From assembly GCA_963845755.1 (NCBI GenBank), contig CAWJTV010000025.1:224001-288000 (forward strand): a stretch of DNA of 64,000 nucleotides, given 5' to 3'. Shown piece after piece: positions 19,518 through 41,200 of this stretch (the first letter of the stretch is position 1; each line of letters opens with the position of its first letter). Source of the stretch: an uncultured Planctomycetota bacterium (GTDB lineage Bacteria; Planctomycetota; Planctomycetia; Isosphaerales; Isosphaeraceae). The translations under genes and the position numbers were made by a program. Under the pieces are notes generated by a model. That model was not told the origin of the DNA and ran no database searches. It saw nothing but the letters and a program-made list of their open reading frames with translations.

Positions 19518-19786
19518 AAGCAGAAGTGAGCGGCAACTAGGCTTCGCTTCCCAACTCCTTCACCGGCCGCAAAAGCCGTCGATGGCGCCTCTCGGCCGAC
19601 TTTGCCAGCCTCGACAGTAGCCAACCGTACACGTGACGGACGGTGGGCCACGTTGCAAAGTTCCTTGGACCCCAATATTATACCCGAAGCTCGACCGACC
19701 GGTCCGCGACCGCCTCCGCGAGCGGGACTAGAACCAGGCCATCCAAACCCACCCCTACCTCTTCATTCTCATTTTGTGATGACACG

Positions 19787-21130
19787 ATGCATACAACTAT
19801 CGATCTACGCATCACGCTCGTCTTAGGTCTTACTCTGATGTCAGCCGTGCCCCCGGCCGGCGCGACGGCGGGCTTCGGCCAGGCCGATGACGCCGCGGGT
19901 GCGCGCGTCCTGACGGGCCACGAGGCCCTCGGCGACTGGACGACCGACGCTCCCGGTCTCCGCCGCCGGATCACGCTCGAAGACCTGGCCACGCCCTACG
20001 AGACACCCTCGGCCAACAATTTCCCCAGGCCCGCACGCCGTCCCGAGGGCGCAATGCCAATGGCGCCGAAGGGCTTTCAGGTCACCGAATTCGTCGGCGG
20101 CCTGAGCAATCCCCGGAAGATCGTGACCGCTCCCAACGGCGATATCTTCTTCGCCGAGAGCATGCCCGGCCGCATCAAGATGCTGCGCGACGCCGACGGA
20201 GATGGAAAGCCCGAGGTAGCCAGTGTCTATGCCAGCGGGCTCAGCCGTCCGTTCGGGATCGCGTTCTATCCGCTCGGACCGAAACCGGATTACGTGTATG
20301 TCGGCAATACCGACTCGGTCGTCCGCTTCCCTTACAAGGATGGCGATACCAAGGCCACGGGTCAGCCCGAGATGATCGTCAAGAATATCCCGAGCGGCCG
20401 CGAGCGCGTCGGCGGCGGCGGCCACTGGACCCGCGACCTGGAATTCTCGAAGGACGGCAAGATTCTCTTCGTGTCCGTCGGTTCCCGGTCGAATGTCAGC
20501 GACGACGCCAGTGAGCGGCGCCGAGCGGATATTCTGGCTTTCGATCCCGACGGCAAGAATGAACGGATCTACGCCTATGGCATTCGCAATGCGGTCGGCC
20601 TGGCGATCCACCCCGAGACCGGCCAGCTCTGGGCGTCCGTCAACGAACGCGACCTGCTGGGAGACCACCTGGTCCCCGACTACGTGACCCACGTCGAGGA
20701 GGGCGGCTTTTACGGCTGGCCCTGGTATTACCTGGGGGCACACCAGGATCCCCGTCACGAGGGGAAGCACCCCGAGCTGAAGGAGAAGGTGATCGTCCCG
20801 GACGTGCTGGTCCAGTCGCACTCCGCATCGCTGTGCATGACCTTCTATACCGGGACCTCGTTCCCCAAGGAGTATCACCTCGACGCGTTCGCCGCCGAGC
20901 ACGGTTCCTGGAACCGCGCCCGTCGCACGGGGTACAAGGTCATCCGCATCCCGATGAAGGACGGCAAGGCGACCGGCGAATACGAAGACTTCCTGGTCGG
21001 ATTCGTCACCAAGGAAGGGAATGTCTGGGGGCGACCCGTCGGTGTCACCGTGGCCAGGGACGGCGCCTTGCTGGTTACCGACGACGGCTCGAATATCATC
21101 TGGCGCGTCAGCGCCGTTCCGGCGAAGTAG
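19787..21130 (+). CDS. Sorbosone/glucose dehydrogenase-family beta-propeller protein
   Basis: Signal peptide; GHWTRD, SVGSRSN, GIRNAVG, VNERD.LGD.LVPDY, HGSWNR, GRPVGV. Confidence 0.9.
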   Translation: MHTTIDLRITLVLGLTLMSAVPPAGATAGFGQADDAAGARVLTGHEALGDWTTDAPGLRRRITLEDLATPYETPSANNFPRPARRPEGAMPMAPKGFQVTEFVGGLSNPRKIVTAPNGDIFFAESMPGRIKMLRDADGDGKPEVASVYASGLSRPFGIAFYPLGPKPDYVYVGNTDSVVRFPYKDGDTKATGQPEMIVKNIPSGRERVGGGGHWTRDLEFSKDGKILFVSVGSRSNVSDDASERRRADILAFDPDGKNERIYAYGIRNAVGLAIHPETGQLWASVNERDLLGDHLVPDYVTHVEEGGFYGWPWYYLGAHQDPRHEGKHPELKEKVIVPDVLVQSHSASLCMTFYTGTSFPKEYHLDAFAAEHGSWNRARRTGYKVIRIPMKDGKATGEYEDFLVGFVTKEGNVWGRPVGVTVARDGALLVTDDGSNIIWRVSAVPAK

Positions 21131-21149
21131 GTCGGGATCGCCCAGAAGC

Positions 21150-21178
21150 CCCGGGCGGCGGATTTGCCGCCGCCCGGG
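21150..21178. terminator. GC-rich hairpin between convergent genes
   Basis: CCCGGGCGGCGG-ATTTG-CCGCCGCCCGGG, perfect 12 bp stem. Confidence 0.6.
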
Positions 21179-21203
21179 ACGAGGCCGCTTCAACATCTCG
21201 GGA

Positions 21204-22862
21204 TCACAGCCCGCTAAGGTCGAGCGCGACGATGCGAACGCCGTGCTTCAGGCCCAGCTTCTTCACCACCTCTTCACTCGCCGGCACGCTGAAACTCCGA
21301 CGCGGAGGAATACTGATTCCCGAGAGCACGCGCGGAACCTCGTCCTTGCCGCTCTCGGTGCCCAGTGCCGCCACACCATTGAGTAGCAATGGCGAGGCAT
21401 TATCAATCCGCAACCGGTAGGTCAACTTTCCCTTCTCGCGAGGACCCTTGAGCAACTGCATCCGCACCAGACGGTTCAGCAGACCCTCCGCCAACGAATC
21501 GGCGAACTTGGCCGCCTCGAACTTGCCGTCCTCGCCCTTGATCGGGACCGTGAACTTGCCGAAGGGAATCCACTTCGCCCCGGCGCCATCGCTGCTGACG
21601 ACCTGGACCAGGGCCGCGTCTCCCTTGAGGCGCACCCGGAACGCCACCGACGGCCCGGCCGGCCGCGCCGGAATCCCGCGCTCCGCGTAGAGGCCCAGCA
21701 CGATCTTGCCTTGCAAAAGTTGGCTCGTCTCGGCCGCCAACTTCTCGCCGGCCGCGTCGGCCCCGTCCACCTGGAAGTGCACCCGGCCTGTCTCGCCGTC
21801 CGCCAGGGTGTCCAGATGCTCGACGAAATCGTGCGCCAGGGTCAACTCGTACCCGTTGGCCCAGTCCCGCGAGAGCTGCGCGATCGTCTCCCAGTCCAGG
21901 CCCGCCCCCAGTCGCCACAGGACCAGTTGCGCCACCCGCGTGGACGCCGTCTGGGCCGCCAGACGCTTCAGGGCCTTCTGCAGCCGGGGATCATCACTGA
22001 CCTCGCTGATATCGCCGATCTTGAACGACTCGCCTTGAGCGGGCAACTTGAGACCCTGTCGGGGATCGGGGTTGGTCAGGCTGATGAAGCGCGTGGGCAG
22101 ATTACGAGTCTGACCGGGCTTGAGATCGGCGAACGGCAGGCTCGACGGCGGCACCGACATCATGCCACCCATGCCGCCGCCCATCATGCCGCCGCCCATT
22201 CCGCCACCCATGCCGCCCATTCCGCCACCCATGCCACCACCCATTCCACCCATCCGGCCCATGCCGATCATCAGGCTTCGCCGGTCCCAGCTATCGAAGT
22301 CTCCGCAGAAATACATGATGATATTGGCGAGCATCATCATGCCCATCATCGGCGGCATCGTGCGGGCACCACCGCCCATCATCCCACCGCGCATCATGCC
22401 ACCGCCCATACCACCGCCCATGCCACCGCCCATACCGCCGCCCATGCCGCCGCCCATACCACCCATGCCACCCATCATGCCACCGCCCATACCACCGCCC
22501 ATGCCGCCCATCATTCCGCCCATCTGGCCGGTGGCGCTCTGGGCGACGATTCCCGGCGGCAGAATGACCCGCAGCGGCTTCTGGGTCCGATTCTTCACGG
22601 TGACGGTCACCCGACCGTCGCCGCTCCCCTCCGTTTTCACGGACACGAGCCCCTGGTGCATCGCATCGAGCAGATTGAACTCCGGCGGTTCCGGGCTAGC
22701 CTTATCCGGCGATAGGGACGCTGGTTTCGCCTGGGAGGTCGCGGGCGGGACGGCCGCCGCGGTCGGGTCGGCAGGACGGTCGTCGGAGGCCCGGACCGTC
22801 GTCGGGCCGCCCAAGAGGCCGGCCATCAGAAAGGCTGTCACAAGAGAAAAGAGTCGTCGCAT
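21204..22862 (-). CDS. Secreted Gly/Met-repeat hypothetical protein, copy 1 (552 aa)
   Basis: AAAGGAG RBS, signal peptide MRRLFSLVTAFLMAG, two GGM arrays around ARTMPPMMGMMMLANIIMYFCGDFDSWDRRSLM, ends ALDLSGL. Confidence 0.85.
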   Translation of the reverse strand: MRRLFSLVTAFLMAGLLGGPTTVRASDDRPADPTAAAVPPATSQAKPASLSPDKASPEPPEFNLLDAMHQGLVSVKTEGSGDGRVTVTVKNRTQKPLRVILPPGIVAQSATGQMGGMMGGMGGGMGGGMMGGMGGMGGGMGGGMGGGMGGGMGGGMMRGGMMGGGARTMPPMMGMMMLANIIMYFCGDFDSWDRRSLMIGMGRMGGMGGGMGGGMGGMGGGMGGGMMGGGMGGMMSVPPSSLPFADLKPGQTRNLPTRFISLTNPDPRQGLKLPAQGESFKIGDISEVSDDPRLQKALKRLAAQTASTRVAQLVLWRLGAGLDWETIAQLSRDWANGYELTLAHDFVEHLDTLADGETGRVHFQVDGADAAGEKLAAETSQLLQGKIVLGLYAERGIPARPAGPSVAFRVRLKGDAALVQVVSSDGAGAKWIPFGKFTVPIKGEDGKFEAAKFADSLAEGLLNRLVRMQLLKGPREKGKLTYRLRIDNASPLLLNGVAALGTESGKDEVPRVLSGISIPPRRSFSVPASEEVVKKLGLKHGVRIVALDLSGL

Positions 22863-23333
22863 TGCACTTCTCCTTTCGGCGAGTTCTCGGCGCAGTGAAA
22901 AGATGAAATCACATGAAAATATCTCGACTGACTGTCGAAAGCCGTGACACGGAGCATTGCGAGGAGGGGCATCACGTGTGTGGGCGTACATTCGCCCCTC
23001 CGACGTGACCCTCCGATCCACGGGGATCCCTTGGTGGGACAGTAGGCGTCTGGCTCAGGTCCGTCGCCCGCCCAACCGATGACGAATTCGCTGAGCCAAG
23101 TCCCTCGCTCACCGTCCGGGTGAGGCAACGGAAGGATCAGAATCATGGCGACTGGCGCCCCCGGCAGATTCACCCGAACGCATACCGCCCCATGTCCGCT
23201 CAGAGAGTGGCGCAGTAAATCCGGTCGGAGTGCGATCCGAGGCAGCAACCTCACGCCGTGGCTGAGGCGGAAGCGATGGCGAGACCAGCGACGGTGAGAC
23301 CGCCTGGGCGAAGGAAGGGAAAAGGCGGCGGGA

Positions 23334-23675
23334 TCAACAGCGCAATGGGACTGTGGCCAGCCGTCGGCTCGACCTCGGCCCATTCGAAATCGAGGAGACT
23401 TCGTGACTGGGGCTGGCTACGGGGCCAAGATCCGACTCCTGAATGATACGAGGATTCGTCTCTTCAAGCACGGACTTCAGCCGGCGCCATGGGGAGTAGA
23501 TAGCCACCGAACAGGGACGTGGAACGGAAGAAGCGTACGATGGCTTCATGCAATCGCGGGGGACGCGAGTCGTATGGTAGTTGGCAGGACGCTTGACATG
23601 GCGAATGCCGGCCGTGGCGAAAGCGAGTGAGAATCCCACCACCAGCATGAATATTGTCGAACGTCGCCACGACAT
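23334..23675 (-). CDS. Small signal-peptide protein A (113 aa, ends RRLATVPLRC)
   Basis: GGGAG RBS, hydrophobic N-terminus, paralogous to the ORFs at 26108 and 28932. Confidence 0.75.
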   Translation of the reverse strand: MSWRRSTIFMLVVGFSLAFATAGIRHVKRPANYHTTRVPRDCMKPSYASSVPRPCSVAIYSPWRRLKSVLEETNPRIIQESDLGPVASPSHEVSSISNGPRSSRRLATVPLRC

Positions 23676-23909
23676 CGACCCACTCCCAAACACCTAGTCG
23701 GCTTACGGAAAACGCCGGCAGGCTTTGTAGACCCTTCCGTCTTCAAAAAATACCGGACTCCCCACCGGTAGTCAAGTCGAATTCAACTCAATCTTAAATG
23801 GAGGCGCGTCTCTATGGCAGATTGGTCTTTGATTGGCGATGCCGAGCTGTCCAGCTACAGATTCCCGGCCGACTGACGGTCGCAACCGGGAATGTGCCGG
23901 ATCCGGAAA

Positions 23910-23940
23910 CGGCCCTGGGCGAGCGAGTCGCCCAGGGCCG
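23910..23940 (-). terminator. Hairpin downstream of Gly/Met copy 2
   Basis: CGGCCCTGGGCGA-GCGAG-TCGCCCAGGGCCG; homologues at 26692 and 29374. Confidence 0.65.
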
Positions 23941-23988
23941 ACGTCCTTGAGTCCACGGCCCTTGCGCTCGGGGCCGGCCGGGGATCGA

Positions 23989-25639
23989 TCACAGCCCACT
24001 GAGGTCGAGCGCGACGATGCGAACGCCGTGCTTCAGGCCCAGCTTCTTCACCACCTCTTCACTCGCCGGCACGCTGAAACTCCGACGCGGAGGAATACTG
24101 ATTCCCGAGAGCACGCGCGGAACCTCGTCTTTCGCACTCTCGGTGCCCAGTGCCGCCAACCCATTGAGCAGCAGCGGCGAGGCATTATCAATCCGCAACC
24201 GGTAGGTCAGCTTTCCCTTCTCGCGAGAACCCTTGAGCAACTGCATCCGCACCAGGCGGTTCAGCAGACCCTCCGCCAACGAATCGGCGAACTTGGCCGC
24301 CTCGAACTGGCCGCCCTCGCCCTTGACCGGGACCGTGAACTTGCCGAAGGGAATCCACTTCGCCCCGGCGCCATCGCTGCTGACGACCTGGACCAGGGCC
24401 GCGTCTCCCTTGAGGCGCACCCGGAACGCCACCGACGGCCCGGCCGGCCGCGCCGGAATCCCGCGCTCCGCGTAGAGGCCCAGCACGATCTTGCCTTGCA
24501 AGAGCTGGCTCGTCTCGGCCGCCAGCTTCTCGCCGGCCGCGTCGGTCCCGTCCACCTGGAAGTGCACCCGGCCCGTCTCGCCGTCGGCCAGGGTGTCCAG
24601 GTGCTCGACGAAATCGCTGCGCCAGGGTCAACTCGTACCCGTTGGCCCAGCTCTGCGACAACTTCGCGATCGTCTCCCAGTCCAGGCCCGCCGCGAGTCG
24701 CCACATGATCAGTTGCGCCACCCGCGTGGACGCCGTCTGGGCCGCCAGACGTTTCAGGGCCTTCTGCAGCCGGAGATCATCACTGACCTCGCTGATATCC
24801 CCGATCTTGAACAGCTCGCCTTGAGCGGGCAACCTGAGGCCCTGATTGGGATCGGGATTGGTCAGGCTGATGAAGCGTGTGGGCAGATTACGAGTCTGAC
24901 CGGGCTTGAGGTCGGCGAACGGCAGGCTCGACGGCGGCACTGACATCATGCCACCCATGCCGCCGCCCATCATGCCGCCGCCCATTCCGCCACCCATTCC
25001 GCCGCCCATACCGCCGCCCATACCGCCACCCATTCCACCCATCCGGCCCATGCCGATCATCAGGCTTCGCCGGTCCCAGCTATCGAAGTCTCCGCAGAAA
25101 TACATGACGATATTGGCGAGCATCATCATGCCCATCATCGGCGGCATCGTGCGGGCGCCGCCGCCCATACCGCCGCCCATACCACCACCCATACCGCCCC
25201 TCATACCGCCGCCCATACCACCGCCCATACCGCCGCCCATACCGCCGCCCATACCACCGCCCATACCGCCACCACCCATCCCGCCCATCATGCCACCCAT
25301 CTGACCGGTGGCACTCTGAGCGATGATTCCCGGCGGTAAAACGACGCGGAGGATCTTGCGAGTACGATTGGTCACGGAGACGGTCACGCGACCATCGCCG
25401 CTCCCCTCGGCTTTCACGGACACGAGCCCCCTATGCATCGCGTCGGGCAAGTTGAACTCGGGCGGGCCCTCCTCGGCCTTATCTTGTGAGACGGATGCTG
25501 GTTTCGCCGCAGAGGTCGCAGGTTGGGCCGCTGTCGTGGTTCTTTCAGCACGACTGTCGTCGTCGGCGCGGGCGGTTGCCAGGCAGCCGACGAAGCCGGC
25601 TACCAGGAACGCTGCGGAAAAGGGAAAACATTGTCGCAT
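23989..25639 (-). CDS. Secreted Gly/Met-repeat hypothetical protein, copy 2 (+1 frameshift near 24617)
   Basis: Near-identical to copy 1 in the C-terminal two thirds; AAATCGCTGCGCC versus AAATCGTGCGCC in copy 1. Confidence 0.8.
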
Positions 25640-26107
25640 GGCACTGGTCCTTTCGGCGAGTTTTTCGGGGTAGGAAAGATCAGCAAAGAACATGAAGACA
25701 TTTTGACTGATGATGGCCCAGGCCATGATCCGGACTGTAGGCGGAGAGTCGGCGCGAGCACGACCCCACCCGTCCAGCCTGGCCCACCCCTTCCGTAGGG
25801 GCCCTGGTCTTGGAAGGCAGCCGTCTGGTTGCGGCCCCTCGCCCGCTCCGCCTCCGGCGCGCCCGCTCGAGGCAAGCCTCAGAGAGAGCCAGTCCGGGAG
25901 ACGAAATGGAAGAGTTGCGCCACGGCGACTTGGCGCCCCCAGCCGATTCATCTGGGTGGCGGCAAGGGACATCTCAGGCCAGCAGTCGCAAGCATCCGGG
26001 CGGAGACTGGCCCCAGTCGGCAAGCTCACGCTCGGGCTGTTACAGGATCCGTGGTGGGACCGGCAACAGTGATGCGGCGCAGGCGAACGCGGGGGCAAGC
26101 GGCGGGC

Positions 26108-26452
26108 TCAACAGCGCAAAGGCAATGTGGCGAGCCGGCGGCGCGGGCTCGACCCGGTCGAAACGAAGGGGATGAAATGACTCGGGCTGGTTATGGCGGC
26201 GAGGTCCGACGCCTCGAAGATTCGAGGACTCGTCTGTTCCAACACCGACTTGAGCCGGTTCCGCCATTGGGAGTGTTGGGAGAGCGACGAGGGTTGCGGA
26301 ACGCACTGGGAAGGGACTTGCTCTTCGCGGTCGAACGCGCTGCGACGAACATCGAGGTTGGTACGAGCCTCGGCGACTGAAAAGGCGGTCGCGGTGGAAA
26401 CGGGCAGGAGCCCCGCGACCAGTACGAGCATTGCCAAGCGTCGCAGCCACAT
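26108..26452 (-). CDS. Small signal-peptide protein B (114 aa, ends RRLATLPLRC)
   Basis: GGGAG RBS, MWLRRLAMLVLVAGLL, WRNRLKSVLEQTSPRI. Confidence 0.75.
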   Translation of the reverse strand: MWLRRLAMLVLVAGLLPVSTATAFSVAEARTNLDVRRSAFDREEQVPSQCVPQPSSLSQHSQWRNRLKSVLEQTSPRIFEASDLAAITSPSHFIPFVSTGSSPRRRLATLPLRC

Positions 26453-26691
26453 CAGCCTGCTCCCGCAGAAGTTGGTCAGACTCCACGTCGCCTTCGCAGG
26501 CTTCGTAGACCCCGCCCATGGTGTGCAACCATACCGGGCTCCTCGGGGAAAGTCAAGTCGGATTGACCATAATATTCGATTAAAATACTTTTCTCTGTTA
26601 GATTGGTCTTCGATCGGGAATGCCGGGCTGTCCACCGGGAGATTCCCGGCCGAGGGCCGGTTGCGGGACGGGCTTGATCGGAATCATGGAA

Positions 26692-26722
26692 GCACCCCGA
26701 GCGAGCGGTTCGCCCAGGGCGC
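26692..26722 (-). terminator. Hairpin downstream of Gly/Met copy 3
   Basis: 13 bp stem that pairs fully on the minus strand using G-U pairs. Confidence 0.6.
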
Positions 26723-26787
26723 ATGTCCTTGAATGAACGGTCGCCGCGCCACTCGCCCGACGGGCTCGGAGAGCGGCCAGGCTGGGA

Positions 26788-28450
26788 TCACAACCCGCTG
26801 AGGTCGAGCGCGACGATGCGAACGCCGTGCTTCAGGCCCAGCTTCTTCACCACCTCTTCACTCGCCGGCACGCTGAAGCTCCGACGCGGAGGAATACTGA
26901 TTCCCGAGAGCACGCGCGGAACCTCATCCTTGCCGCTCTCGGTGCCCAGTGCCGCCACACCATTGAGCAGCAATGGCGAGGCGTTCTCGATCCGCAACCG
27001 GTAGGTCAACTTTCCCTTCTCGCGAGGACCCTTGAGCAACTGCATCCGCACCAGGCGGTTCAACAGCCCTTCCGCCAACGAATCGGCGAACTTGGCCGCC
27101 TCGAACTTGCCATTCTCGCTCTTGACGGAGACCGTGAACTTGCCGAAGGGAATCCACTTCGCCCCCGCGCCGTCGCTGCTGACGACCTGGACCAGGGCCG
27201 CGTCTCCCTTGAGGCGCACCCGGAACGCCACCGACGGCCCGGCCGGCCGCGCCGGAATCCCGCGCTCCGCGTAGAGGCCCAGCACGATCTTGCCTTGCAA
27301 GAGCTGGCTCGTCTCGGCCGCCAGCTTCTCGCCGGCCGCGTCGGTCCCGTCCACCTGGAAGTGCACCCGGCCCGTCTCGCCGTCGGCCAGGGTGTCCAGG
27401 TGCTCGACGAAATCGCGCGCCAGGGTCAACTCGTACCCGTTGGCCCAGTCCCGCGAGAGCTGCGCGATCGTCTCCCAGTCCAGGCCCGCCCCCAGCCGCC
27501 ACAGGACCAGTTGCGCCACCCGCGTGGACGCCGTCTGGGCCGCCAGGCGCTTCAGGGCCTTCTGCAGCCGGGGATCATCACTGACCTCGCTGATATCGCC
27601 GATCTTGAACGACTCGCCTTGAGCGGGCAACTTGAGACCCTGTCGGGGATCGGGGTTGGTCAGGCTGATGAAGCGCGTGGGCAGATTACGGGTCTGGCCG
27701 GGCTTGAGATCGGCGAACGGCAGGCTCGACGGCGGCACCGACATCATGCCCCCCATGCCGCCGCCCATCATGCCGCCGCCCATTCCGCCACCCATGCCAC
27801 CCATTCCGCCACCCATGCCACCGCCCATGCCACCCATCCGGCCCATGCCGATCATCAGGCTTCGCCGGTCCCAGCTATCGAAGTCTCCGCAGAAATACAT
27901 GACGATATTGGCGAGCATCATCATGCCCATCATCGGCGGCATCGTGCGGGCGCCACCGCCCATACCACCCATCATGCCGCCGCCCATACCGCCACCCATA
28001 CCACCCATACCACCGCCCATGCCACCGCCCATGCCACCGCCCATGCCACCCATACCACCCATCATGCCACCGCCCATACCACCGCCCATACCGCCCATCA
28101 TTCCGCCCATCTGGCCGGTGGCGCTCTGGGCGACGATTCCCGGCGGCAGAACGACCCGCAGCGGCTTCTGGGTCCGATTCTTCACGGTGACGGTCACCCG
28201 ACCGTCGCCGCTCCCCTCCGTTTTCACGGACACGAGCCCCTGGTGCATCGCATCGAGCAGATTGAACTCCGGCGGTTCCGGGCTAGCCTTATCCGGCGAT
28301 AGAGACGCTGGTTTCGCCTGCGGAGGTCGCGGGCGGGACGGCCGCCGCGGTCGGGTCGGCAGGACGGTCGTCGGAGGCCCGGACCGTCGTCAGGCCGCCC
28401 AGGAATCCGGCGGCCAGGAACACTGCGGAAAGAGCGAAGAACGGTCGCAT
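26788..28450 (-). CDS. Secreted Gly/Met-repeat hypothetical protein, copy 3 (+1 frameshift near 28321)
   Basis: Near-identical to copy 1; GCCTGCGGAGG versus GCCTGGGAGG; AAGGAG RBS before the ATG at 28450. Confidence 0.8.
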
Positions 28451-28931
28451 TGCACGTCTCCTTCAGGAGAGTTTCGGTGTGAAAACGATCAACAAATTAC
28501 ATGAAAACATACCGAATCATGATAGTCCGGGCCGCGGCCCGTGCAATTCGCCGGCGGATCCCATCACGAGCACAAGCACGAGTGCGACTCCGCCCGCCTT
28601 GACGTGGCTTGCCGATCCACGCAAGCCCTTCGTTCGGGAAGCGGCCGCCCGCTTGAGGCCCCCGTCCGATCCGCCGATGAAGCGTCACCGAAGGTCAGGC
28701 CCGCGAGTGCACCGGTTCGGATGACCGAACGGCAGACTTCGAAATTCAGGGGCTGGTGTCACCAGCCGGTTCACCCGGACGCATCCGGGGCGTGGCGTGT
28801 CAGCGGTCACAACGGATCCGGATGGACCGCAGTCTGGGGCGGGAAGCTCGTTCTGTACGCTGATGCCGAACGGTTGTCGGACCAGCGACGGCGAGGCCGC
28901 CCGGGGCGAAGGAAGGGAAAGTGGGGTGGGA

Positions 28932-29273
28932 TCAACAGCGCAGCGGGACTCTGGCGAGCCGTCGGTTCAGGCTCGACCCGCTCGGAACGAAGGGATTCCC
29001 ATGATGCTGGCTGGGTACGGGGCCAAGATCGGATTCCTCGATGATTCGAGGACTCGTCTCTTCGAGTACAGACTTGAGCCGGCGCCATGGGGAATAGATG
29101 GAGACCGAGGAGGGACGCGGTGCGGAGAGAACACTGGCGTGTTTCTCCGCTCCGACGGCGATGCAGGTGGAATCAGGCTTGGCACGGTCGTTGACCTGTC
29201 GATCGCCGGGCGTGGAGGAAGCGAGCCAGAAGCCCGCGACCATCATGAGCATTGCCAAGCATCGCGACCACAT
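28932..29273 (-). CDS. Small signal-peptide protein C (113 aa, ends RRLARVPLRC)
   Basis: MWSRCLAMLMMVAGFWLA, YSPWRRLKSVLEETSPRIIEESDLGPV. Confidence 0.75.
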   Translation of the reverse strand: MWSRCLAMLMMVAGFWLASSTPGDRQVNDRAKPDSTCIAVGAEKHASVLSAPRPSSVSIYSPWRRLKSVLEETSPRIIEESDLGPVPSQHHGNPFVPSGSSLNRRLARVPLRC

Positions 29274-29373
29274 CGATGCAACCCTTAAAAACTTGGTCGG
29301 GACGGAAATCGCCTTTGCAGGCTTTGCAAATCCCTTCCCCAAAGATGTGAAAAAAGTCCGGGATCCTGGAACG

Positions 29374-29400
29374 GCCCTGGGCGAGCGAGTCGCCCAGGGC
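29374..29400 (-). terminator. Hairpin downstream of Gly/Met copy 4
   Basis: GCCCTGGGCGA-GCGAG-TCGCCCAGGGC. Confidence 0.6.
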
Positions 29401-29477
29401 ACACGTCTTTTGTATCCGTCGGTCCCGTGTTCAGCCCGCGGGCCATCGGCCCAAGGGGTGAGACCGACCGGCCGGGA

Positions 29478-31142
29478 TCACAGTCCGCTGAGGTCCAGCG
29501 CCATCACGCGGATGCCTTGCTTCAGACCGAGCGCCTTGACGGCCTCCTCGGAGGCGGGAAGCGTCATGTGCTTCCGAGGCGGGATGCTGATCCCCGAGAG
29601 CAGCTTGGGAGCCTCTCCGGGCTTGTCCACCGTACCCATCACGGCCAATCCGTTGAGGTTCAGCGGCGAGACATTGTCGATCCGGATTCCGTAAGTCAGC
29701 TTGCCCTTCTCGCGGGGCCCCTTGATCAACTGGGCCCGGACGAGGCGGTTGATGATGCCCTCAGCCAGCGCTTCGGCGAACCGTGCGCTCTCGAACTTTC
29801 CGCGATCCTTGGTGACCGGCACCGAGAACTTGCCGAAGGGGAGCCAGTTCCGGGCCCAACCGTCGCTGCTGACGACCTGGACGACCGCGTCGCTGTCGCG
29901 GAACCGCACCTGGCAGGCCACCGCCGGTCCCTCCGGTCGCGACGGAACCCCGATGACCGCTTGAAGCCCGAGCACCGTCTTCCCCTTCATCAGTTCGGAG
30001 AGTTCGGCCGCCCGCGACTCGCTCGACGCGTCCGTCCCGGTGATCTGGAATAAGATCCGCCCGGTTTCGCCTTCCGGCAACGCGCCCAATCGGTCCACGA
30101 AGTCCCGGGCCAGGGTCAGTTCGTTTTGGTTCGCCCACTTCTGGGAGAGTTGGGCGATGGAATCCCAGTCCAACCCGCCGGCCAGCCGCCACATGACGAG
30201 TTGCGCCACCGACGCGGGGACCATCCGGCCGCTGAGTCGCTTGAGAGCTTTCTGCACCTGCGGATCGTTGTTCACTTGCGCGATGTCTCCCACGATCCGG
30301 AGGATTTCTCCCTTCTCGGGCAGGGCGACTCCATTCTCGGGATCCGGATTGGTGAGACTGACCACGCTGGTCGGCAAGTGCCGGGTCTGCTTGGGTTTCA
30401 GATCGGCGGATGGGAGACTCGACGGCGGAACCGACATCATCCCGCCCATACCACCACCCATGCCGCCCATACCACCACCCATGCCGCCGCCCATGCCGCC
30501 GCCCATGCCGCCCATGCCGCCACCCATGCCGCCGCCACCCATGCCCATCATCAGGCTTCGCCGGTCCCAGCTATCGAAATCTCCGCAGAAGTACATGACG
30601 ATATTGGCGAGCATCATCATGCCCATCATCGGCGGCATCGTGCGGGCACCACCGCCCATACCGCCACCCATACCGCCGCCCATGCCACCGCCCATACCGC
30701 CGCCCATGCCACCGCCCATACCGCCGCCCATGCCACCGCCCATACCGCCGCCCATGCCACCGCCCATGCCACCCATGCCACCGCCCATACCGCCCATCTG
30801 GCCCGTGGCACCCTGGGCGACAATTCCCGGAGGAAGGATCACGCGGAGCGCGTGGTTGGTGCGGTTGGTCACGGAGATCGTGATCCGACCGTCGCCGATT
30901 CCTTCCGCCTGGGCGGAAACCAATTTCTGACTCATGGCATCGAGCAGGCTGTATTCGGGAACATCTTGCGTCGTCCCGGGTTCAGTCTTGGAGGTGGCCG
31001 TGGTCTTGGGTGCCTTGGCACTCGGCTTACCTTTGACCCGACTGCTGATCTTGACCTCCTGGGCAGAGACCCAGGCCGCCGGCAAGATGGCCATCAGGCC
31101 GCCGGCTACCAACGCGATAAAACCATGTAACGACTGACGCAT
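29478..31142 (-). CDS. Secreted Gly/Met-repeat hypothetical protein, copy 4 (most divergent, 554 aa)
   Basis: Signal peptide MRQSLHGFIALVAGG, same architecture, ends MALDLSGL. Confidence 0.85.
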   Translation of the reverse strand: MRQSLHGFIALVAGGLMAILPAAWVSAQEVKISSRVKGKPSAKAPKTTATSKTEPGTTQDVPEYSLLDAMSQKLVSAQAEGIGDGRITISVTNRTNHALRVILPPGIVAQGATGQMGGMGGGMGGMGGGMGGGMGGGMGGGMGGGMGGGMGGGMGGGMGGGMGGGARTMPPMMGMMMLANIVMYFCGDFDSWDRRSLMMGMGGGGMGGGMGGMGGGMGGGMGGGMGGMGGGMGGMMSVPPSSLPSADLKPKQTRHLPTSVVSLTNPDPENGVALPEKGEILRIVGDIAQVNNDPQVQKALKRLSGRMVPASVAQLVMWRLAGGLDWDSIAQLSQKWANQNELTLARDFVDRLGALPEGETGRILFQITGTDASSESRAAELSELMKGKTVLGLQAVIGVPSRPEGPAVACQVRFRDSDAVVQVVSSDGWARNWLPFGKFSVPVTKDRGKFESARFAEALAEGIINRLVRAQLIKGPREKGKLTYGIRIDNVSPLNLNGLAVMGTVDKPGEAPKLLSGISIPPRKHMTLPASEEAVKALGLKQGIRVMALDLSGL

Positions 31143-31816: not shown

Positions 31817-31877
31817 ATGGGAATATTAAAAGACTTAGTGTTTCGTTTCTCCTGATTTTCGCGAGGCCGGTGTGGCA

Positions 31878-34800
31878 ATGGAACTGCTGTCAGAGATTTG
31901 GGATAAGACGACCGACGCATTCACGTCGCTCTCGGAAGGGGTCTCGCACGGACTGATCCGACTGTTCGGCAGCTCGAACGAGCGGAAGATCCGGCAGATG
32001 CGGCCGTTGGTCGCTCAGATCAACGAACTCGAGCCGAGCATGACCGCTCTCTCGGAAGAGGAGCTCCGTGCCAGGACCGACGAGCTGCGCCGGCGTCGCG
32101 CGGCAGGGGAGTCGCTCGATGACCTGCTACCGGAGGCGTTCGCGGCGTGTCGCGAGTCGGGGCGGCGTTATCTGAACATGCGCCATTTCGACGTGCAGTT
32201 GATGGGCGGCATGGTGCTGCACGGCGGCAGTATCGCCGAGATGGTCACCGGCGAAGGGAAGACGCTGGTCGCGACCCTGGCCGCGTATCTCAACGCGCTG
32301 GAGGGCCGGGGCGTGCACGTGGTGACCGTCAACGACTACCTGGCGCGTCGCGACGCGGAATGGATGAGCCCGCTGTTCCACGGGCTGGGCATGACCGTCG
32401 GGGCCATCCAATCGGAGATGGACCCCGAGGAGCGGCAGGCGATCTACGCCTGCGACATCACCTACGGTACCAACAATGAGTTCGGCTTCGACTATCTCCG
32501 CGACAACATGAAGCCGATCAAGGAGATGCAGTGCCAGAAAGAGCTGTTCTACGCCATCATTGACGAGGTCGACAGCATCTTGATCGATGAGGCGCGGACG
32601 CCGCTGATCATCTCGGGCCCCGCCTTCGACGACGTACGCAAGTACGCCGAGGCCGATCGGATCGCCCGCGCGCTGAAGCGTGACCTCCACTTCGAGGTCA
32701 AGGAGAAGGAGCGGACCTGCCACCTGACCGACGACGGCGTCCGCGAGGCGGAGCAAATCGCCGGGCTCGAGAGCTTCTACACGCCCGGCAACATGGAGTG
32801 GCCGCACCTCATCGACAACTCATTGAAGGCGCACCATCTCTACAAGCGCGACCGCGACTACGTGGTCCAGCCCAACGGCGAGGTGGTGATCGTCGACGAG
32901 TTCACCGGCCGCCTGATGATCGGCCGCCAGTGGTCCGACGGCCTTCACCAGGCCGTGGAGGCCAAGGAGCGGGTGAAGATCAAGGAGGAGAACCAGACGC
33001 TGGCCACCATCACCCTCCAGAACTTCTTCAAGCTCTACAAGAAGCTGGGGGGGATGACCGGCACGGCGATGACCGAGGCGACCGAGTTCTACAAGGTCTA
33101 CACCCTGGACGTGGTCGCCATCCCCACCAACTGCGCCGCTGGTGCGCGTGAACTACCCCGACGTGATCTTCCGGTACGAGCGGGAGAAGTCGCAGGCGAT
33201 CCTGGACGAGATCAAGGAGGTCAACGCGAGCGGGCGTCCGGTCCTGGTCGGGACGACCTCGATCGAGAAGTCCGAGGAGCTCGCGGACATGCTCAAGATG
33301 TACGGCATCGAGCATCAGGTCCTCAATGCCAAGTATCACGAGCGCGAGGCGGAGATCGTGGCCCAGGCCGGCCGTCGCCGGGCCGTCACGATCGCGACCA
33401 ACATGGCCGGCCGCGGCACCGACATCATCCTCGGGGGCAATCCCGAGTTCATGGCCTGGGCCGACCTGAAGCGGGAGTTCGACGAGGATGGCCGGCCGCG
33501 GTACCAGACCCGGCTCGACGTTTCCAAGGAGGTCTGGGACGGGGCGGTCGGCCGCTACGAGCCCGAGATGAAGGCCGAGGGCCGCGAGGTCGCCGCCGTG
33601 GGCGGCCTGCATATCATCGGCACCGAGCGGCATGAGAGCCGCCGGATCGATAATCAGCTTCGCGGACGGGCCGGACGCCAGGGCGATCCCGGGTCCTCGC
33701 GGTTCTTCCTCTCGCTCGAAGACGACCTCATGCGCAAGTTCGCCGGGGAATGGGTCGCCAACGTGCTGACCCGGCTCGGCATGCAAGAGGGCGAGGCGAT
33801 CGAGAGCCTGATGGTCAGCCGACGGATCGAGGGGGCCCAGAAGAAGGTCGAAGAGCGGAACTTCGACATGCGCAAGAACCTGCTCGAATATGACGAGGTC
33901 ATGGACGAACAGCGCAAGCGCGTCTATTCGTTCCGACAGGGCCTGCTCGAGGGGGCCTCGCCCAAGGAGATGGTCCTGGACATGATCGACGGCCAGATCC
34001 AGGACGCGGCCGGCCGGTTCCTCGCCGAAGATTACGGGGCCGCGACCTTTGCCGAGTGGGCCGGCCAACGCATGGGCGCCGAGATCACCGCCCGCGACTT
34101 GAAAGGTACGACCTTCGAGGATGCCGAGGAGATCGTTCGGGCCAAGGGGGAGCGACAGCTCAACGAGGTGATTCGCCAGGCCATGGAGGAGAATCTCCCC
34201 ACCGACGCCGACCCCTCGGAATGGACCTGGCAGGTGCTGGCCCGCTGGGCCAACGAGCGGTTCGATCTCAATCTCAAGGAGCGGGACCTCAAGAAATACG
34301 GCCAGACCGACGCGGACTCCTTCCGATCCGGCCGGGACGACCTGGAAGAACTGCTGAACGAGAAGGCCGCGGAGTCGCTCCAGAAAATCGACCTCGCGCC
34401 GGCTCGCGAATTCCTGATGCCCGACTGGGGCCGCCGGTCGCTCAGTGGCTGGGTTCATCACAAGTTCGCCATGGCGATCGACCCGGCCGCCTGGGCTGGG
34501 ATCGACCGCGCCGAGATCATCCGCCGCATCCAGGGCGAGGCCCGGCGGCTCTATGCCTTGAAAGAGTCCGAGCTCCCCGTCCGGATCGCCCTGATGCGCT
34601 ACCTCTCCGACCGGGACCACCTCCAGACGCCACGTTACGACCGTGACGGCCTGTCCGATTGGTTCTCCCACCGCTACCCCGTCGTCCTTCCCGCCGACGA
34701 GCTCCGCCCGTTGCTTCGTTCCGAGATCGAGGCCCACCTCATCGGCCTGGCCCATCAGCACTACCAGGGCGCCCGCGTCGCCGATGAGCTCGAGTCCCGA

Positions 34801-35505
34801 CTCGCCGCGGCTGGACTGTCCAGGCCACACGACGACAAGGACGTCCCGCCCCCCGATCCCGCGGCCCTGACCGACCTCGGGGACTGGGCCCGGCAGTCGC
34901 TCAACGTCGACCTCCCCGCCGAGGAATGGACCTCGCTCGCCCCCGCCGAGATCCGCGCGCGGCTCCACGCCGCACTCGACGCCAAGTTCCGCCCCGAGAT
35001 GCGCGAGATGGAGAAGGCGGTCCTGCTCCAGATCCTCGACTCGAGCTGGATGGAACACCTCCGCGCCATGGACCATCTCCGGAGCTCGATCGGCCTCCAG
35101 GGCTATGCCCAGATCGATCCCAAGGTCGAGTACAAGCGCGAAGGCATGCGGATCTTCGCCGAGATGTGGAACGGGATCGGCGACCGGGTCACCGATCTGA
35201 TCTTCCGTGTCGAGCAATTCGACCCCGATTTCCTGGACTACCTGGGATCGCGCTACAACAAACTCGACCGGGCCCAGACGATTCATCAGGAGGCGGAATC
35301 GCAACTGGCGGCGGCGCCCTCGGGGAGCGTCCGTCAGCAGCAAGACGCCGCCATCGCCGGCAGTCAACAGTTGACGGAAAAGAAGAAAGAGCCGGTCCGC
35401 AAGGTTGGAAAAAAGGTCGGCCGGAACGACCCGTGTCCCTGTGGGTCCGGTAAAAAATTCAAAGCGTGCTGCATGCGGAAGCACGCCGATGCCGACCCGT
35501 TCTGA
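31878..35505 (+). CDS. secA: Preprotein translocase ATPase SecA (frameshift near 33135)
   Basis: [75 protein letters not shown] motif [18 protein letters not shown]. Confidence 0.97.
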
Positions 35506-38298: not shown

Positions 38299-41200
38299 AT
38301 GTCTCAGCCATCCCGAACCCGGGCGCGCGGCCCAGCAGAGCGTCGTCGTCGTGATCTGAAGATCGAGCCGCCGACCCCCTTGGAGGACCGTCGCCTGCCT
38401 GCGCCGGTCGTCTCCTTGTTTCCCCTGGGGGTGTCGTTCGTACCCGCACCGACACCGACGAACGCGGACCTGGGCACCGTGGTGGTGACGGAGAACACCG
38501 CGGCGACGATCGCCGACTCGCAAGCACCGATCACGTCGGTGTCTGAGCTGACATCGAACGCTTCGTTCGGTAACGACATCGTCAACATCCAGCCGGGCCC
38601 GGGGGGCGTCTTCGGGGAAGACGTCTACGCGATCTCCCGAGGCGCCGGCGGCAACCCCGACGCGATCAACCGTCCGGGCGTGATCTATCGCGTTGATCCG
38701 GCCACCGGCAAGGCGAGCGTCTTCTTCGATCTCAACACGGTCCTCAGCCAGATCGACCCGACCAATAGCACGCCCGCGACCCCGGCGGCCAACTCGCTGG
38801 GCAACTCGACGGGGCTGGTGAACTGGTACAGTATGAGCTTCGACCCCGAGGGGAACTTCGACGGCACTCCGTCCTTGTTCGTCAGCAGCGTCAACCGCTC
38901 CGATCCGAACAAGAACATCATCTTCCAGATCGCCCCCAACGGCACGCTGATCGGCGTCTTCGTCCAGATGACCGACGGGCTCTCGGCCCAGAAGTTCAAC
39001 CTGAACCCCACGGCGATCCTGATCCCGCCGGTGCAGCAGCAGCAGTTCCTCAGCGGGATGATCGCCGGTAGCGGGATCAGCACGACGTCGGGCACGTTCG
39101 CGGCGCTCTACTTCAACCAGAACAGCTACTCTCCGGGCCAGGTCATCAGCAATTCCGTCCTGCCGACGGGCGTAAGCCAGACCAACCTGGGCCTGCCGGT
39201 GATCACCCAGGTGCTCACGAATTTCAATTCGGTCACGACGACCTCGGTCGCCACCGGACCGATCGTCGGCCTGACCTCGTCGAACAGCTACTATGGCAAC
39301 CAGACATTCTCGATCTTCACGGACTTCGGGACGTCGGCGGCCCCCGGGATCCCGGCCGCGCCGGGCTATAGCGGCGTCCAGGGGAGCGACGGCGAGCTGT
39401 TGATCGGTAATGCCACGACCCTCGCACTCAGCGCGACCGGGGACACCGACATCCAGCCCGCCGCGTCAACGTTGTTCCGGCGATTCTACGGCATCGCTTT
39501 CGACCAGTACGGCTACTTCTCCCAGGGTATGGCGATCGGGGCCAGCAGCACCGTGGGCAGCGGTACGAGCACAACGTTGACCGTCACCGATCCCCCGAGT
39601 TATGCCGGCAGCGTGTTCGTCAGCGACCTGTCGTCCGGGCTGTATATCAGCATCACGCCCCAGGCTCCGTTGCCCACCACGTCCATCCTGATCCCCGTCG
39701 AGGGGACGGGAGTCGTGAGCGTCACCTCGGATTCGAATGGAAACGTGATCCCGATCATCAGCTATGTCCCGAACCCGGACGGGTCGGTTGGCTTCGGCGG
39801 CCGTGTCGTCCGGATCACGCCGGCGGGCCTGGTGAACGAGTTCGCCTATGGGTTCAACGTGTCGCCGGACACGGGGTCCGACAGTTTCATCGATTCCACC
39901 CTGAGCATCGGGTTCTCGGGGGATGGGACGATCTTCTACGCCGCCGACAATACCGGGATCTGGCAGTTCAAGACGACCGCCGACCTGGCCGACTCGACCA
40001 GCGGAAGTCTGATCGGCCTGAACGACCTCCGCGCCCTGGGCGTCCCGTACGACGGCGAGAACAGCGCCGTGGCGGTGGTGGACACCGGCGTGGACGCCAG
40101 TGCGCCCTCGTTCCGCGGCCGGGTTGCCACCGGCACAAATATCATCACGGGCGGTGTCGGCAACCAGGATCTGGCCCCCGCCAGCACCGCGAGTACGACG
40201 ACGGGGGGGACCGGCGGAGGCGGCGGCGGCGGGGGAGTCGGCGGTCGCGGCGGTGGCGGTGGGGGTGGAGGTGGCGGTGGGGGCGGCGGCGGTGGGGGTG
40301 CCGGCGGCGGCGGTGGTGCGGGCCTAGGCATCACTGCAGGCGCCAGTGCCACTCAACGCGGCGGTGTTTCCGCGGGCGATCCCACGTTCCTCAACCAAAC
40401 CCCGGCCGGACACGGCACGCCGGTCGCGGGTGTCATCGCCCAGTTCGTCCCTCAAGCCACGATCGACCCCATCGATATCTTCAGCCCATTCTCCCCGTCC
40501 GCGAGCTTGATATCCAGCTCGACCACGGCGGGCGGCACCGGCGGCACCGGCGGCGGTGGTGGCGGCACCGGGACCGGGGGCGCGCTGAGCGAAACGACCA
40601 ACGACGATGGGGCCACATCCCAGACGCTCTACAACGGGCTTCAGTACCTGGTCGCGCACCCGTACGTCAACGATCCGCTCCGAGCGGGGCAAGTGGATCG
40701 CATCATCGCGGCCGTATACGCCTTCGGAACTTCCAATACGTTCGCCACCGAGGCGGGTGCATACAAGCAGTTCCCGCAAGTCGTCATCGCCCTGAAGAAT
40801 GAGTACCATAAGCTGCGCAAGGAGGGAATCGCCAACATCGCGGCGACCGGTCAGTTCGGCGCACCCCTGGGGGCATCGACCTCGTCTTCGACCACCACCA
40901 CCGGGACGGGCAGCTCGGGCGTCAATCTCGAGGCGAACAACAACGCCCAGAACGGGAGTGTGGGCGACAACGGCGGCATCTCGCTTCCCGCCATCATCAA
41001 CGAGGTGGTCTCCGTCACCGGCGTGTACTCCTTCCCCTTCACGGACACGCCTGGGACCTCGCCCATCGATACGCCGACCGGGGTCATTACCACGGGCGGC
41101 GCCTCCGAACCGGGCCCCGTCCTCCTCTTCGGATCGGACGCGACGATCGGCGGGACCGCAACGATCGGGTCCAGCAGCAGTGGGACAACCGGCGGCACCA

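Follow-up and report, generated by a model that had tools for sequence, protein, structure and literature searches.

A tandem array of exported genes with a TED-like domain and putative PLRC-tailed leader peptides in an Isosphaeraceae planctomycete

Introduction

What is a small open reading frame (ORF) doing in front of three of the four tandem copies of a gene for an exported protein? The question is raised by a 64,000-nt stretch of planctomycete DNA (assembly GCA_963845755.1, contig CAWJTV010000025.1, positions 224,001 to 288,000; hereafter the window), taken from a genome of 14.3 Mb and 64% GC; homologues of the array proteins are labelled Isosphaeraceae. Four paralogous large genes lie on the minus strand, with stops at 21204, 23989, 26788, and 29478. 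Small ORFs of 113-114 amino acids (aa) that end in PLRC, here called S2, S3, and S4, lie upstream of large copies 2, 3, and 4, respectively. The original prediction, made from the letters of the window alone, correctly gave the repeat periods (2785, 2799, and 2690 nt from stop to stop) and the three paralogous small ORFs. It read each pair as an exported two-component module, in which the small protein is a dedicated partner of a surface, metal-binding, or adhesive protein. Our analysis leads to a different view. The unit is best read as a leader and a structural gene rather than as a two-protein module. It would consist of a promoter, a cis-acting leader peptide ORF, a spacer, and an exported gene with a domain like the thioester domain (TED), the copies having been gene-converted. 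From sequence comparison, we put the probability of this reading at roughly 0.58; the mechanism is one that we propose from the anatomy of the leader.

Results and Discussion

The small ORFs were examined as a family. Fetched loci yielded 41 distinct matches, and three were dropped (frameshifted, without an in-frame start, or partial) to leave 38. Nearly all are of one length (110-119 aa in 37/38), a Shine-Dalgarno (SD)-like site lies upstream of 34, and every one carries a hydrophobic stretch at residues 7-18; the best 11-residue hydropathy window in the first 30 residues is at least 1.55 in all 38, with a median of 2.84. About 90 residues beyond this signal lies the tail, which reads PLRC in 27/38 and xLRC or a near variant in the others. 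When the 38 sequences are aligned without gaps from the C-terminus, the tail (P-4 in 30, L-3 in 35, R-2 in 36) is accompanied by an ungapped motif 25-53 residues before the PLRC-stop, with K-47 conserved in 33, L-44 in 29, D-32 in 30, and G-30 in 31; W-52, R-49, V-45, E-42, E-34, P-29, P-25, and C-1 are the other conserved positions. Synonymous codons vary at the conserved residues, and the ratio of nonsynonymous to synonymous differences (pN/pS), taken over 33 non-independent pairs, is 0.11 in the last four codons, 0.38 in the motif, and 0.79 in the linker. These data suggest that the small ORF is a protein under selection, whose linker appears to be constrained in length more than in sequence. 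The metal binding envisaged earlier finds no footing here, as the small ORF has no conserved metal-binding motif (CxxC/CxxxC in 1/38).

The end of the small ORF is also marked at the nucleotide level. From about 100 nt upstream of the stop to 20 nt past it, C is more frequent than G, and in the 30 nt after the stop the C-minus-G count is positive in 35/38 leaders, averaging 5.9, whereas the mean of 3855 control genes is -0.1. This genome carries a rho gene. In 35 of the 38 cases the ORF directly precedes a large gene, from which a spacer of 222-634 nt separates it. A sigma-70-like site lies 92-104 nt before the start in 19/35 leaders versus 1/35 spacers. Because promoter-like sites stand before leaders and almost never in spacers, the transcript of the large gene most likely has the small ORF as its first cistron. 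Within the window, such sites precede S3 (TTGACT-N17-TATGGT, 26528..26556, minus strand) and S4 (TTGACT-N17-TATTTT, 23747..23775, minus strand), whereas the ~130 nt that hold them are missing before S2 (29274-29373). The conserved upstream motifs described earlier are thus present in two of the three units. Since the segment with the promoter-like site is missing, transcription of unit 2 may rely on reading through from copy 1.

This anatomy suggests how the leader may act. A ribosome would stall with the terminal Cys in the P site and the stop codon in the A site, covering the Rho utilization (rut)-like tract, and RNA polymerase would transcribe through the spacer into the large gene. Sec pulling on the nascent chain, or engagement of the exposed motif, would release the ribosome, upon which Rho would terminate transcription in the spacer. 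A motif 25-53 residues back from the stalled end would lie at and beyond the exit of the ribosomal tunnel. Because the targets identified so far are almost all exported or envelope proteins, our guess is that the sensed signal is secretion or envelope state. We infer the stalling and the Rho termination from the anatomy of the leader, and the sign of the regulation is likewise tentative.

The PLRC tail is not restricted to the large gene. Two members of the small-ORF family head a gene for an STN/TPR protein, which has a Gly/Met tail of its own, and these two are nested inside the leader tree. This genome also contains six further ORFs of similar size that end in PLRC or PRRC. Five of them lie upstream of RND pump genes, and the sixth precedes an insertion sequence that itself lies before another such leader. 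A profile of this RND-linked family matches 54 of the 121 family genomes; the small-ORF profile matches 23/121, one match being weak. Thirty RND-linked matches were examined, 29 of them complete, and all 29 end in PLRC. A membrane-fusion or AcrB-type gene of an RND pump lies within 1.5 kb of 27/29. These leaders show the same C>G tract, conserve a Glu at -43, and encode the terminal Cys by TGT in 22/29. If the leader reading is true, PLRC leaders would be candidates for the control of planctomycete RND pumps. In 61 genomes of the class, a DNA pattern for PLRC-stop did not rise clearly above a reversed control outside the family, and leader-like cases were found at 0/19 loci fetched from other families versus 6/11 within the family.

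Twenty regions cut from other genomes around large-gene matches were compared. Leader and large gene alternate in eight of them, so that the pairing recurs; in the other 12, which contain between one and four large genes, the stretch has neither such a small ORF nor secA. Because of this division, the pairing belongs to one clade, and the large gene is not dependent on the small ORF. The dedicated partnership of the original prediction is not supported by these results: the small-ORF family also heads an STN/TPR gene, a second PLRC family heads RND pumps, and 12/20 loci are leaderless. The array is divergent from secA, as described earlier, and this arrangement recurs in 5/8 leader-bearing loci versus 0/12 leaderless loci; a sugar dehydrogenase gene is convergent in 7/8 leader-bearing loci. 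The secA linkage of the leader-bearing clade reads as synteny. A functional link to secA was rejected as unsupported, the linkage being found in one clade only and on the opposite strand. An assembly artefact as the source of the array, already thought improbable in the original prediction, was rejected because the same arrays are present in other genomes. The Gly/Met tract inflates a tally of 81/81 matches for the large protein, and we did not rely on that tally.

The layout of the unit has been kept, as was first noted, but its large genes have not diverged uniformly. DNA identity is 90-96% among large copies 2-4, 67-74% among the small ORFs, and 63-69% among the spacers. The homology claimed for the spacers holds at this level, which is only modestly above that of shuffled controls (mean 0.57, max 0.62). 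For two genomes from a single genus, comparison of units 2 and 3 within each genome gives 98-100% identity over most of the coding part and ~45-50% over the leader region, the leaders being closer between genomes by position. In trees, large copies mostly group by genome, and those leaders by position. This pattern points to concerted evolution, in which the coding part would be homogenised by gene conversion under distinct leaders. Mis-polishing may raise identity within single assemblies; the homogenisation pattern is seen in many.

Several observations weigh against a leader peptide of this kind. The 38 homologues are kin, and statistics on them therefore overstate significance. Sixteen of the 35 leaders have no consensus promoter, and the two PLRC families are alike in the tail only, with a profile probability of 15%. 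A RAPP-like motif is absent from all 38 leaders, and DUF2946 (PF11162) gave no match for the three window leaders, ten other leaders, or these loci in a genome scan. PLRC is not avoided inside genes (6 observed versus 2-13 in permutations), and a crude genome scan gave no separation between ORFs ending in RC and those ending in RQ, 9/111 of each having a hydrophobic start. The last codon, finally, is biased in a way that a pure peptide model leaves unexplained. The terminal Cys is encoded by TGT in 35/38 leaders, versus 20% TGT genome-wide; the figure is just 16/77 for internal Cys codons of the same ORFs, and other genes ending in Cys have a terminal TGT in 18/42. This bias points to a constraint at the RNA level, and the terminal TGT may be part of the stall or the sign of an RNA-level element. 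Control could then lie wholly in the RNA, with the ORF delivering the ribosome to a CGCTGT-stop and C-rich pause or termination element and the tail itself causing no arrest. The tail's Arg codon (CGC in 30/36) and the TGT preference of the RND-linked family fit this alternative as well. However, every synonymous codon is used for the tail's Pro and Leu, conservation of the upstream motif is at the protein level, no common fold appears around the stop in single-sequence folds, and Rfam gave no match. We consider control by RNA alone unlikely.

A small protein that is exported and serves the large one as partner or chaperone, the two making up a surface module, would account for the 35/38 ORFs that directly precede a large gene, for the strict alternation in eight other arrays, and for hydrophobic N-termini on both proteins. 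We nevertheless think it distinctly improbable, given two family members that head the unrelated STN/TPR gene from within the leader tree, 12/20 large-gene loci without a small ORF, and leaders that diverge while their supposed binding partners are homogenised; a spacer of 222-634 nt and conservation anchored at the tail also fit a leader better. When the large protein (56-552) was co-folded with leader S2 (22-113), the median was 0.01 and the mark 0.32, a result that decides nothing either way. Most improbable of all, in our estimate, is a trans-acting peptide, secreted or in the membrane, that serves as a signal or is modified via its C-terminal Cys and is co-transcribed with envelope genes. 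Several distinct families of this genome do combine an invariant C-terminal Cys with a signal-like N-terminus, but no modifying enzyme or transporter is common to the loci viewed, and a trans product would leave the codon bias and the C>G tract unexplained. The cis-acting leader is the reading that we prefer.

Known leaders offer points of comparison, drawn here from the available portions of the cited papers. In CruR (Bordetella pertussis bp2923, a DUF2946 upstream ORF (uORF)), the ribosome stalls at a C-terminal motif, where it covers a C>G bubble and keeps Rho from acting in a long spacer (PMC9426467). CruR and the PLRC leaders share an exported-type small ORF in first operon position, a C>G bubble across the ORF end, a long spacer, and two motifs at conserved spacing (45 residues in CruR; 43-47 from K/VL.E to the end in PLRC leaders). 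Rho is the proposed effector for CruR, as it would be here. Unlike CruR, which has CxxC and RAPP, the PLRC leaders combine K.VL.E/DLGP with PLRC-stop, do not match DUF2946, have spacers of 222-634 nt, and show no sign of copper sensing; of the two marks of CruR- and CutF-like leaders, a CxxC-type metal motif is seen in 1/38 and a RAPP-like tail in 0/38. The nearest named Atlas cluster to the leader is labelled DUF2946/DUF6769, a weak lead (score 0.93, 91/256 features). CutF and CutF-like proteins of Rhodobacter capsulatus also combine a Sec signal with a C-terminal stalling-like motif, and relatives are frequently found before RND efflux genes (AcrB-type, HlyD_D23), as is the RND-linked PLRC family (PMC9973294). 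In contrast to PLRC leaders, CutF works across a short spacer by unfolding a stem-loop that masks the SD, and it carries a Cys metal motif as well as a tail rich in proline (PMC9973294).

Among planctomycetes, the uA_LPPP arrest peptides have been shown to stall, and their build (104-125 aa in seven rows, signal-bearing, with spacers of 107-299 nt) resembles that of the PLRC leaders (PMC10987492). Three other arrest-peptide classes in the same report arrest at or with the stop codon, as is proposed for PLRC leaders. The features by which that report recognises arrest-peptide uORFs are partly present: all 38 small ORFs have an N-terminal hydrophobic segment, and their conserved C-terminus lies more than 30 residues from the signal. 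However, uA_LPPP lies upstream of secA/secDF on the same strand, whereas the PLRC leaders are divergent from secA, and none lies upstream of sec/yidC on the same strand; their targets are the large protein, STN/TPR, and RND genes. The uA_LPPP tail differs from PLRC, which occurs once in 12 supplement files, inside one uA_LPPP sequence (PMC10987492). The available part of PMC4833913, which treats short-distance leader genes, does not describe a PLRC-type leader. Outside sec/yidC operons, most of the bacterial arrest peptides known are RAPP-like, and a screen that relies on RAPP or on sec genes would miss the PLRC tail.

Further leader-like ORFs were seen during this work. Because a CruR-like ORF lies at L175:1423-1830(+), this genome also has RAPP-type leaders; this ORF has a CLIC motif, RAPP near its end, and a DUF2946 score just below cut-off, and it lies ~390 nt upstream of a prepilin-type gene. 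Locus L159 (genome G056) has a His-rich, CxxH-bearing ORF with a PLRC-stop end upstream of a membrane-fusion-like gene, which looks like a metal-sensor-like body on a PLRC tail. At L081:8993-10887(-), two serial PLRC leaders with an insertion-sequence gene between them lie upstream of an RND operon. At loci L096, L098, L101, and others, the RND-linked leaders and their spacers are almost the same across genomes from different genera, and for this reason recent horizontal spread of a leader-pump cassette is suggested. A third family comprises ORFs of 122-132 aa with a hydrophobic N-terminus (often IQxxTPD) and an LCRxxC end; a C>G tract and long spacers separate them from sulfotransferase, sigma-factor-like, and membrane genes. 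Its members are L084:4906-5625(+), L084:9514-9909(-), L085:1443-1811(+), L089:7262-7627(-), G000:C42:158397-158780(-), and G000:C43:18110-18577(-). The ORF at G000:C39:110939-111388, with a WQLLC end, resembles this family.

What the large gene encodes was approached by modelling. The model of copy 4 (21204..22862, minus strand; 552 aa, frame intact; pTM 0.74) begins with a signal-like helix followed by a linker. Residues 61-118 and 236-351 form one TED-like domain, from which a low-confidence Gly/Met loop (115-235) emerges; residues 358-466 form a TolB-N/CsgG-like alpha-beta domain, and 466-552 an Ig-like beta-sandwich. The loop holds 59 Gly and 37 Met in 123 residues, together with a conserved island in which a Trp is near-invariant (49/50); it is predicted to be a disordered, flexible tether for that short island. 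The alpha-beta domain resembles FlgT, TolB-N, TraT, HpaA, PelC, and CsgG with middling Z scores of 6.5-8.0 and a root-mean-square deviation (rmsd) of ~3 Å over 79-105 residues, the arrangement being a common one. A Foldseek search with the whole model gives TolB-N/CsgG-like matches at E 1e-4 to 1e-3 with low TM-scores. Likeness to these envelope proteins is confined to one of the four domains. Neither the small nor the large protein reaches a Pfam or NCBIfam cut-off, in keeping with the original prediction, which could assign neither to a characterised family.

The TED-like fold is best seen in a distant paralog with a short loop on contig C34. When the paralog domain is folded alone (pTM 0.80), the top 8 of 48,161 chains are all TEDs, at Z 4.9-6.4 and an rmsd of 2.9-4.4 Å over 98-117 residues; the next row is at Z 3.8. 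The paralog carries VCLN and AQAVMW, matching the TED Cys motif and TQxxhW helix. A profile alignment (probability 100) places its Cys125 on Ser261 of copy 4 and AQAVMW on AQLVLW, and through this alignment the fold is carried over to the array copies. The AQLVLW-type helix motif retains Q in 85/93 and W in 92/98, with Ala or Ser for Thr. Other results speak against the assignment: Foldseek against the PDB found no TED for either the copy 4 or the paralog model, a profile search of PDB sequences found none, the whole-protein model of copy 4 did not list TEDs, and the Z scores of the paralog are middling. Pfam TED (PF08341) matches neither the large nor the paralog proteins, and its genome scan gave one unrelated locus. 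On these moderate scores, the modelled N-terminal domain of the large protein has a TED-like fold, which makes the adhesin role suggested earlier a fair lead.

The arrayed domain differs from the paralog at the reactive site. At the position of the thioester Cys, which in TEDs lies in a [YFL]C-hydrophobic-hydrophilic motif, the array family has no Cys and has Ser in 58/74 aligned rows, whereas the paralog family has Cys in 67/69, as VCLN. By fold, the array protein would thus be a TED-headed envelope protein, but one that lacks the Cys by which TEDs are defined. Because this Cys is replaced by Ser, the protein most likely binds or scaffolds non-covalently. A Gln just before the Gly-rich loop is found in 39/42 array-type and 34/38 Cys-type sequences and in all 8 relatives from other families; it is a candidate thioester partner from a permuted position. 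The same Gln and the prevailing Ser could instead sustain an internal Ser-Gln ester in place of the Cys-Gln thioester, giving a covalent or mechanically locked adhesin. We hold this to be improbable, as other residues occupy the site in 16/74 and known TEDs take their Gln from the C-terminal strand (available part of PMC6194298), and we prefer non-covalent binding. Two other planctomycete families (7/200 sampled phylum genomes) have versions that stand alone, bear the Cys, and contain a Gly-rich loop.

TEDs are domains of Gram-positive TIE adhesins, for example, Cpa, SfbI, CpTIE, BaTIE, and SaTIE (available parts of PMC4450167 and PMC6194298). They share with the planctomycete paralog a beta-barrel and helical bundle, a strand Cys-hydrophobic-hydrophilic motif, and a QxxhW helix, and with the large protein export and a downstream Ig-like domain. 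The large protein differs in its planctomycete host, the absence of an LPXTG anchor, the long Gly/Met loop inside the domain, the extra TolB-N/CsgG-like domain, and, in the arrayed copies, Ser for Cys; no counterpart of the C-terminal Gln strand was identified in it. TEDs have so far been described as Gram-positive adhesins. The planctomycete TED-like branch is widespread, has a giant loop rich in Gly, includes forms with and without the Cys as well as arrays under distinct leaders, and gives a handle on an unannotated planctomycete envelope protein family.

A bolder version of the leader reading joins these threads, and we regard it as possible but doubtful. PLRC-stop, with UGU required, would be an undescribed termination-arrest class, serving as a portable, Rho-coupled envelope sensor of Isosphaeraceae pumps and surface proteins and tuning planctomycete TED arrays that have permuted Gln and Ser chemistry. 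Arrest at Cys-stop with a codon requirement would, if true, be new stalling chemistry. Our search of the open literature, with supplements for PMC10987492 only, found no description of PLRC leaders or of planctomycete TEDs.

Two further sets of proteins touch on the TED-like family. STN/TPR exported proteins end in the same Gly/Met tract and an MMS(V/I)(P/L)P motif that closes the TED-like loop (L083:8015-9745(-), G000:C1:152894-154606(+), and L093:224-1945(+)); those in G020 form a gene-leader-gene tandem. A strand-swap tether between the STN/TPR and large-protein families is a possibility that these sequences raise. An exported protein of 253 aa at L144:1222-1983(+) contains a canonical Pfam TED above cut-off, and we take its tail to be PEP-CTERM-like. 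A literature search for this combination of TED and tail found nothing.

The remaining features of the array, all on the minus strand, are given in transcript order. Copy 1 (29478..31142) has an intact frame of 554 aa and no leader; by homology to copy 4, its domain map comprises a signal-like N-terminus, a TED-like domain with a Gly/Met loop, a TolB-N/CsgG-like domain, and an Ig-like C-terminal domain. A GC-rich 11-bp hairpin without a U-tract lies 3' of its stop (29374..29400). S2 (28932..29273; 113 aa, PLRC-TGA end, no promoter-like site detected upstream) is followed by a 481-nt spacer that begins with a C-rich/G-poor, rut-like tract (28451..28931) and by copy 2 (26788..28450), which has a one-base frameshift near 28321 and is 96% identical in DNA to copy 4. 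The hairpin after copy 2 (26694..26720) is varied in sequence and retains 11 pairs. S3 (26108..26452; 114 aa, PLRC-TGA end), a 468-nt spacer (25640..26107), and copy 3 (23989..25639) follow. Copy 3 has a one-base frameshift near 24617, a diverged 5' part, and a 3' part 92-100% identical to copies 2 and 4; its hairpin (23912..23938) is identical to that of copy 1. S4 (23334..23675; 113 aa, PLRC-TGA end) and a 471-nt spacer with a C-rich/G-poor start (22863..23333) lead into copy 4.

Two details of the original prediction are refined by this layout. The conserved 11-bp hairpin exists downstream of the stop in each of copies 1-3, and some other genomes show paired changes in it, but it belongs to the 3' end of the large gene rather than to the small ORF. 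The length of ~553 aa given for all four proteins applies to copies 1 and 4, copies 2 and 3 being frameshifted. Because secA in the window and AcrB-type genes elsewhere in this assembly are also split in frame, the frameshifts are more likely sequencing errors than marks of pseudogenes. Four DNA contig sets from public runs yielded short pieces only, none of which crosses the array or decides the frameshifts.

Downstream of copy 4, a 14-bp hairpin (21148..21180) is likely a terminator shared with the convergent glucose/sorbosone dehydrogenase-family gene (19643..21130, plus strand), the syntenic flank of leader-bearing arrays. The divergent flank (31872..35505, plus strand), in two frames in this assembly, is presumably secA, judging by its sequence. 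Farther along, 38299-43083(+) encodes an exported protein of 1594 aa with a subtilase-like motif region and poly-Gly and Thr-Pro tracts, which we take to belong to a planctomycete-type exported family.

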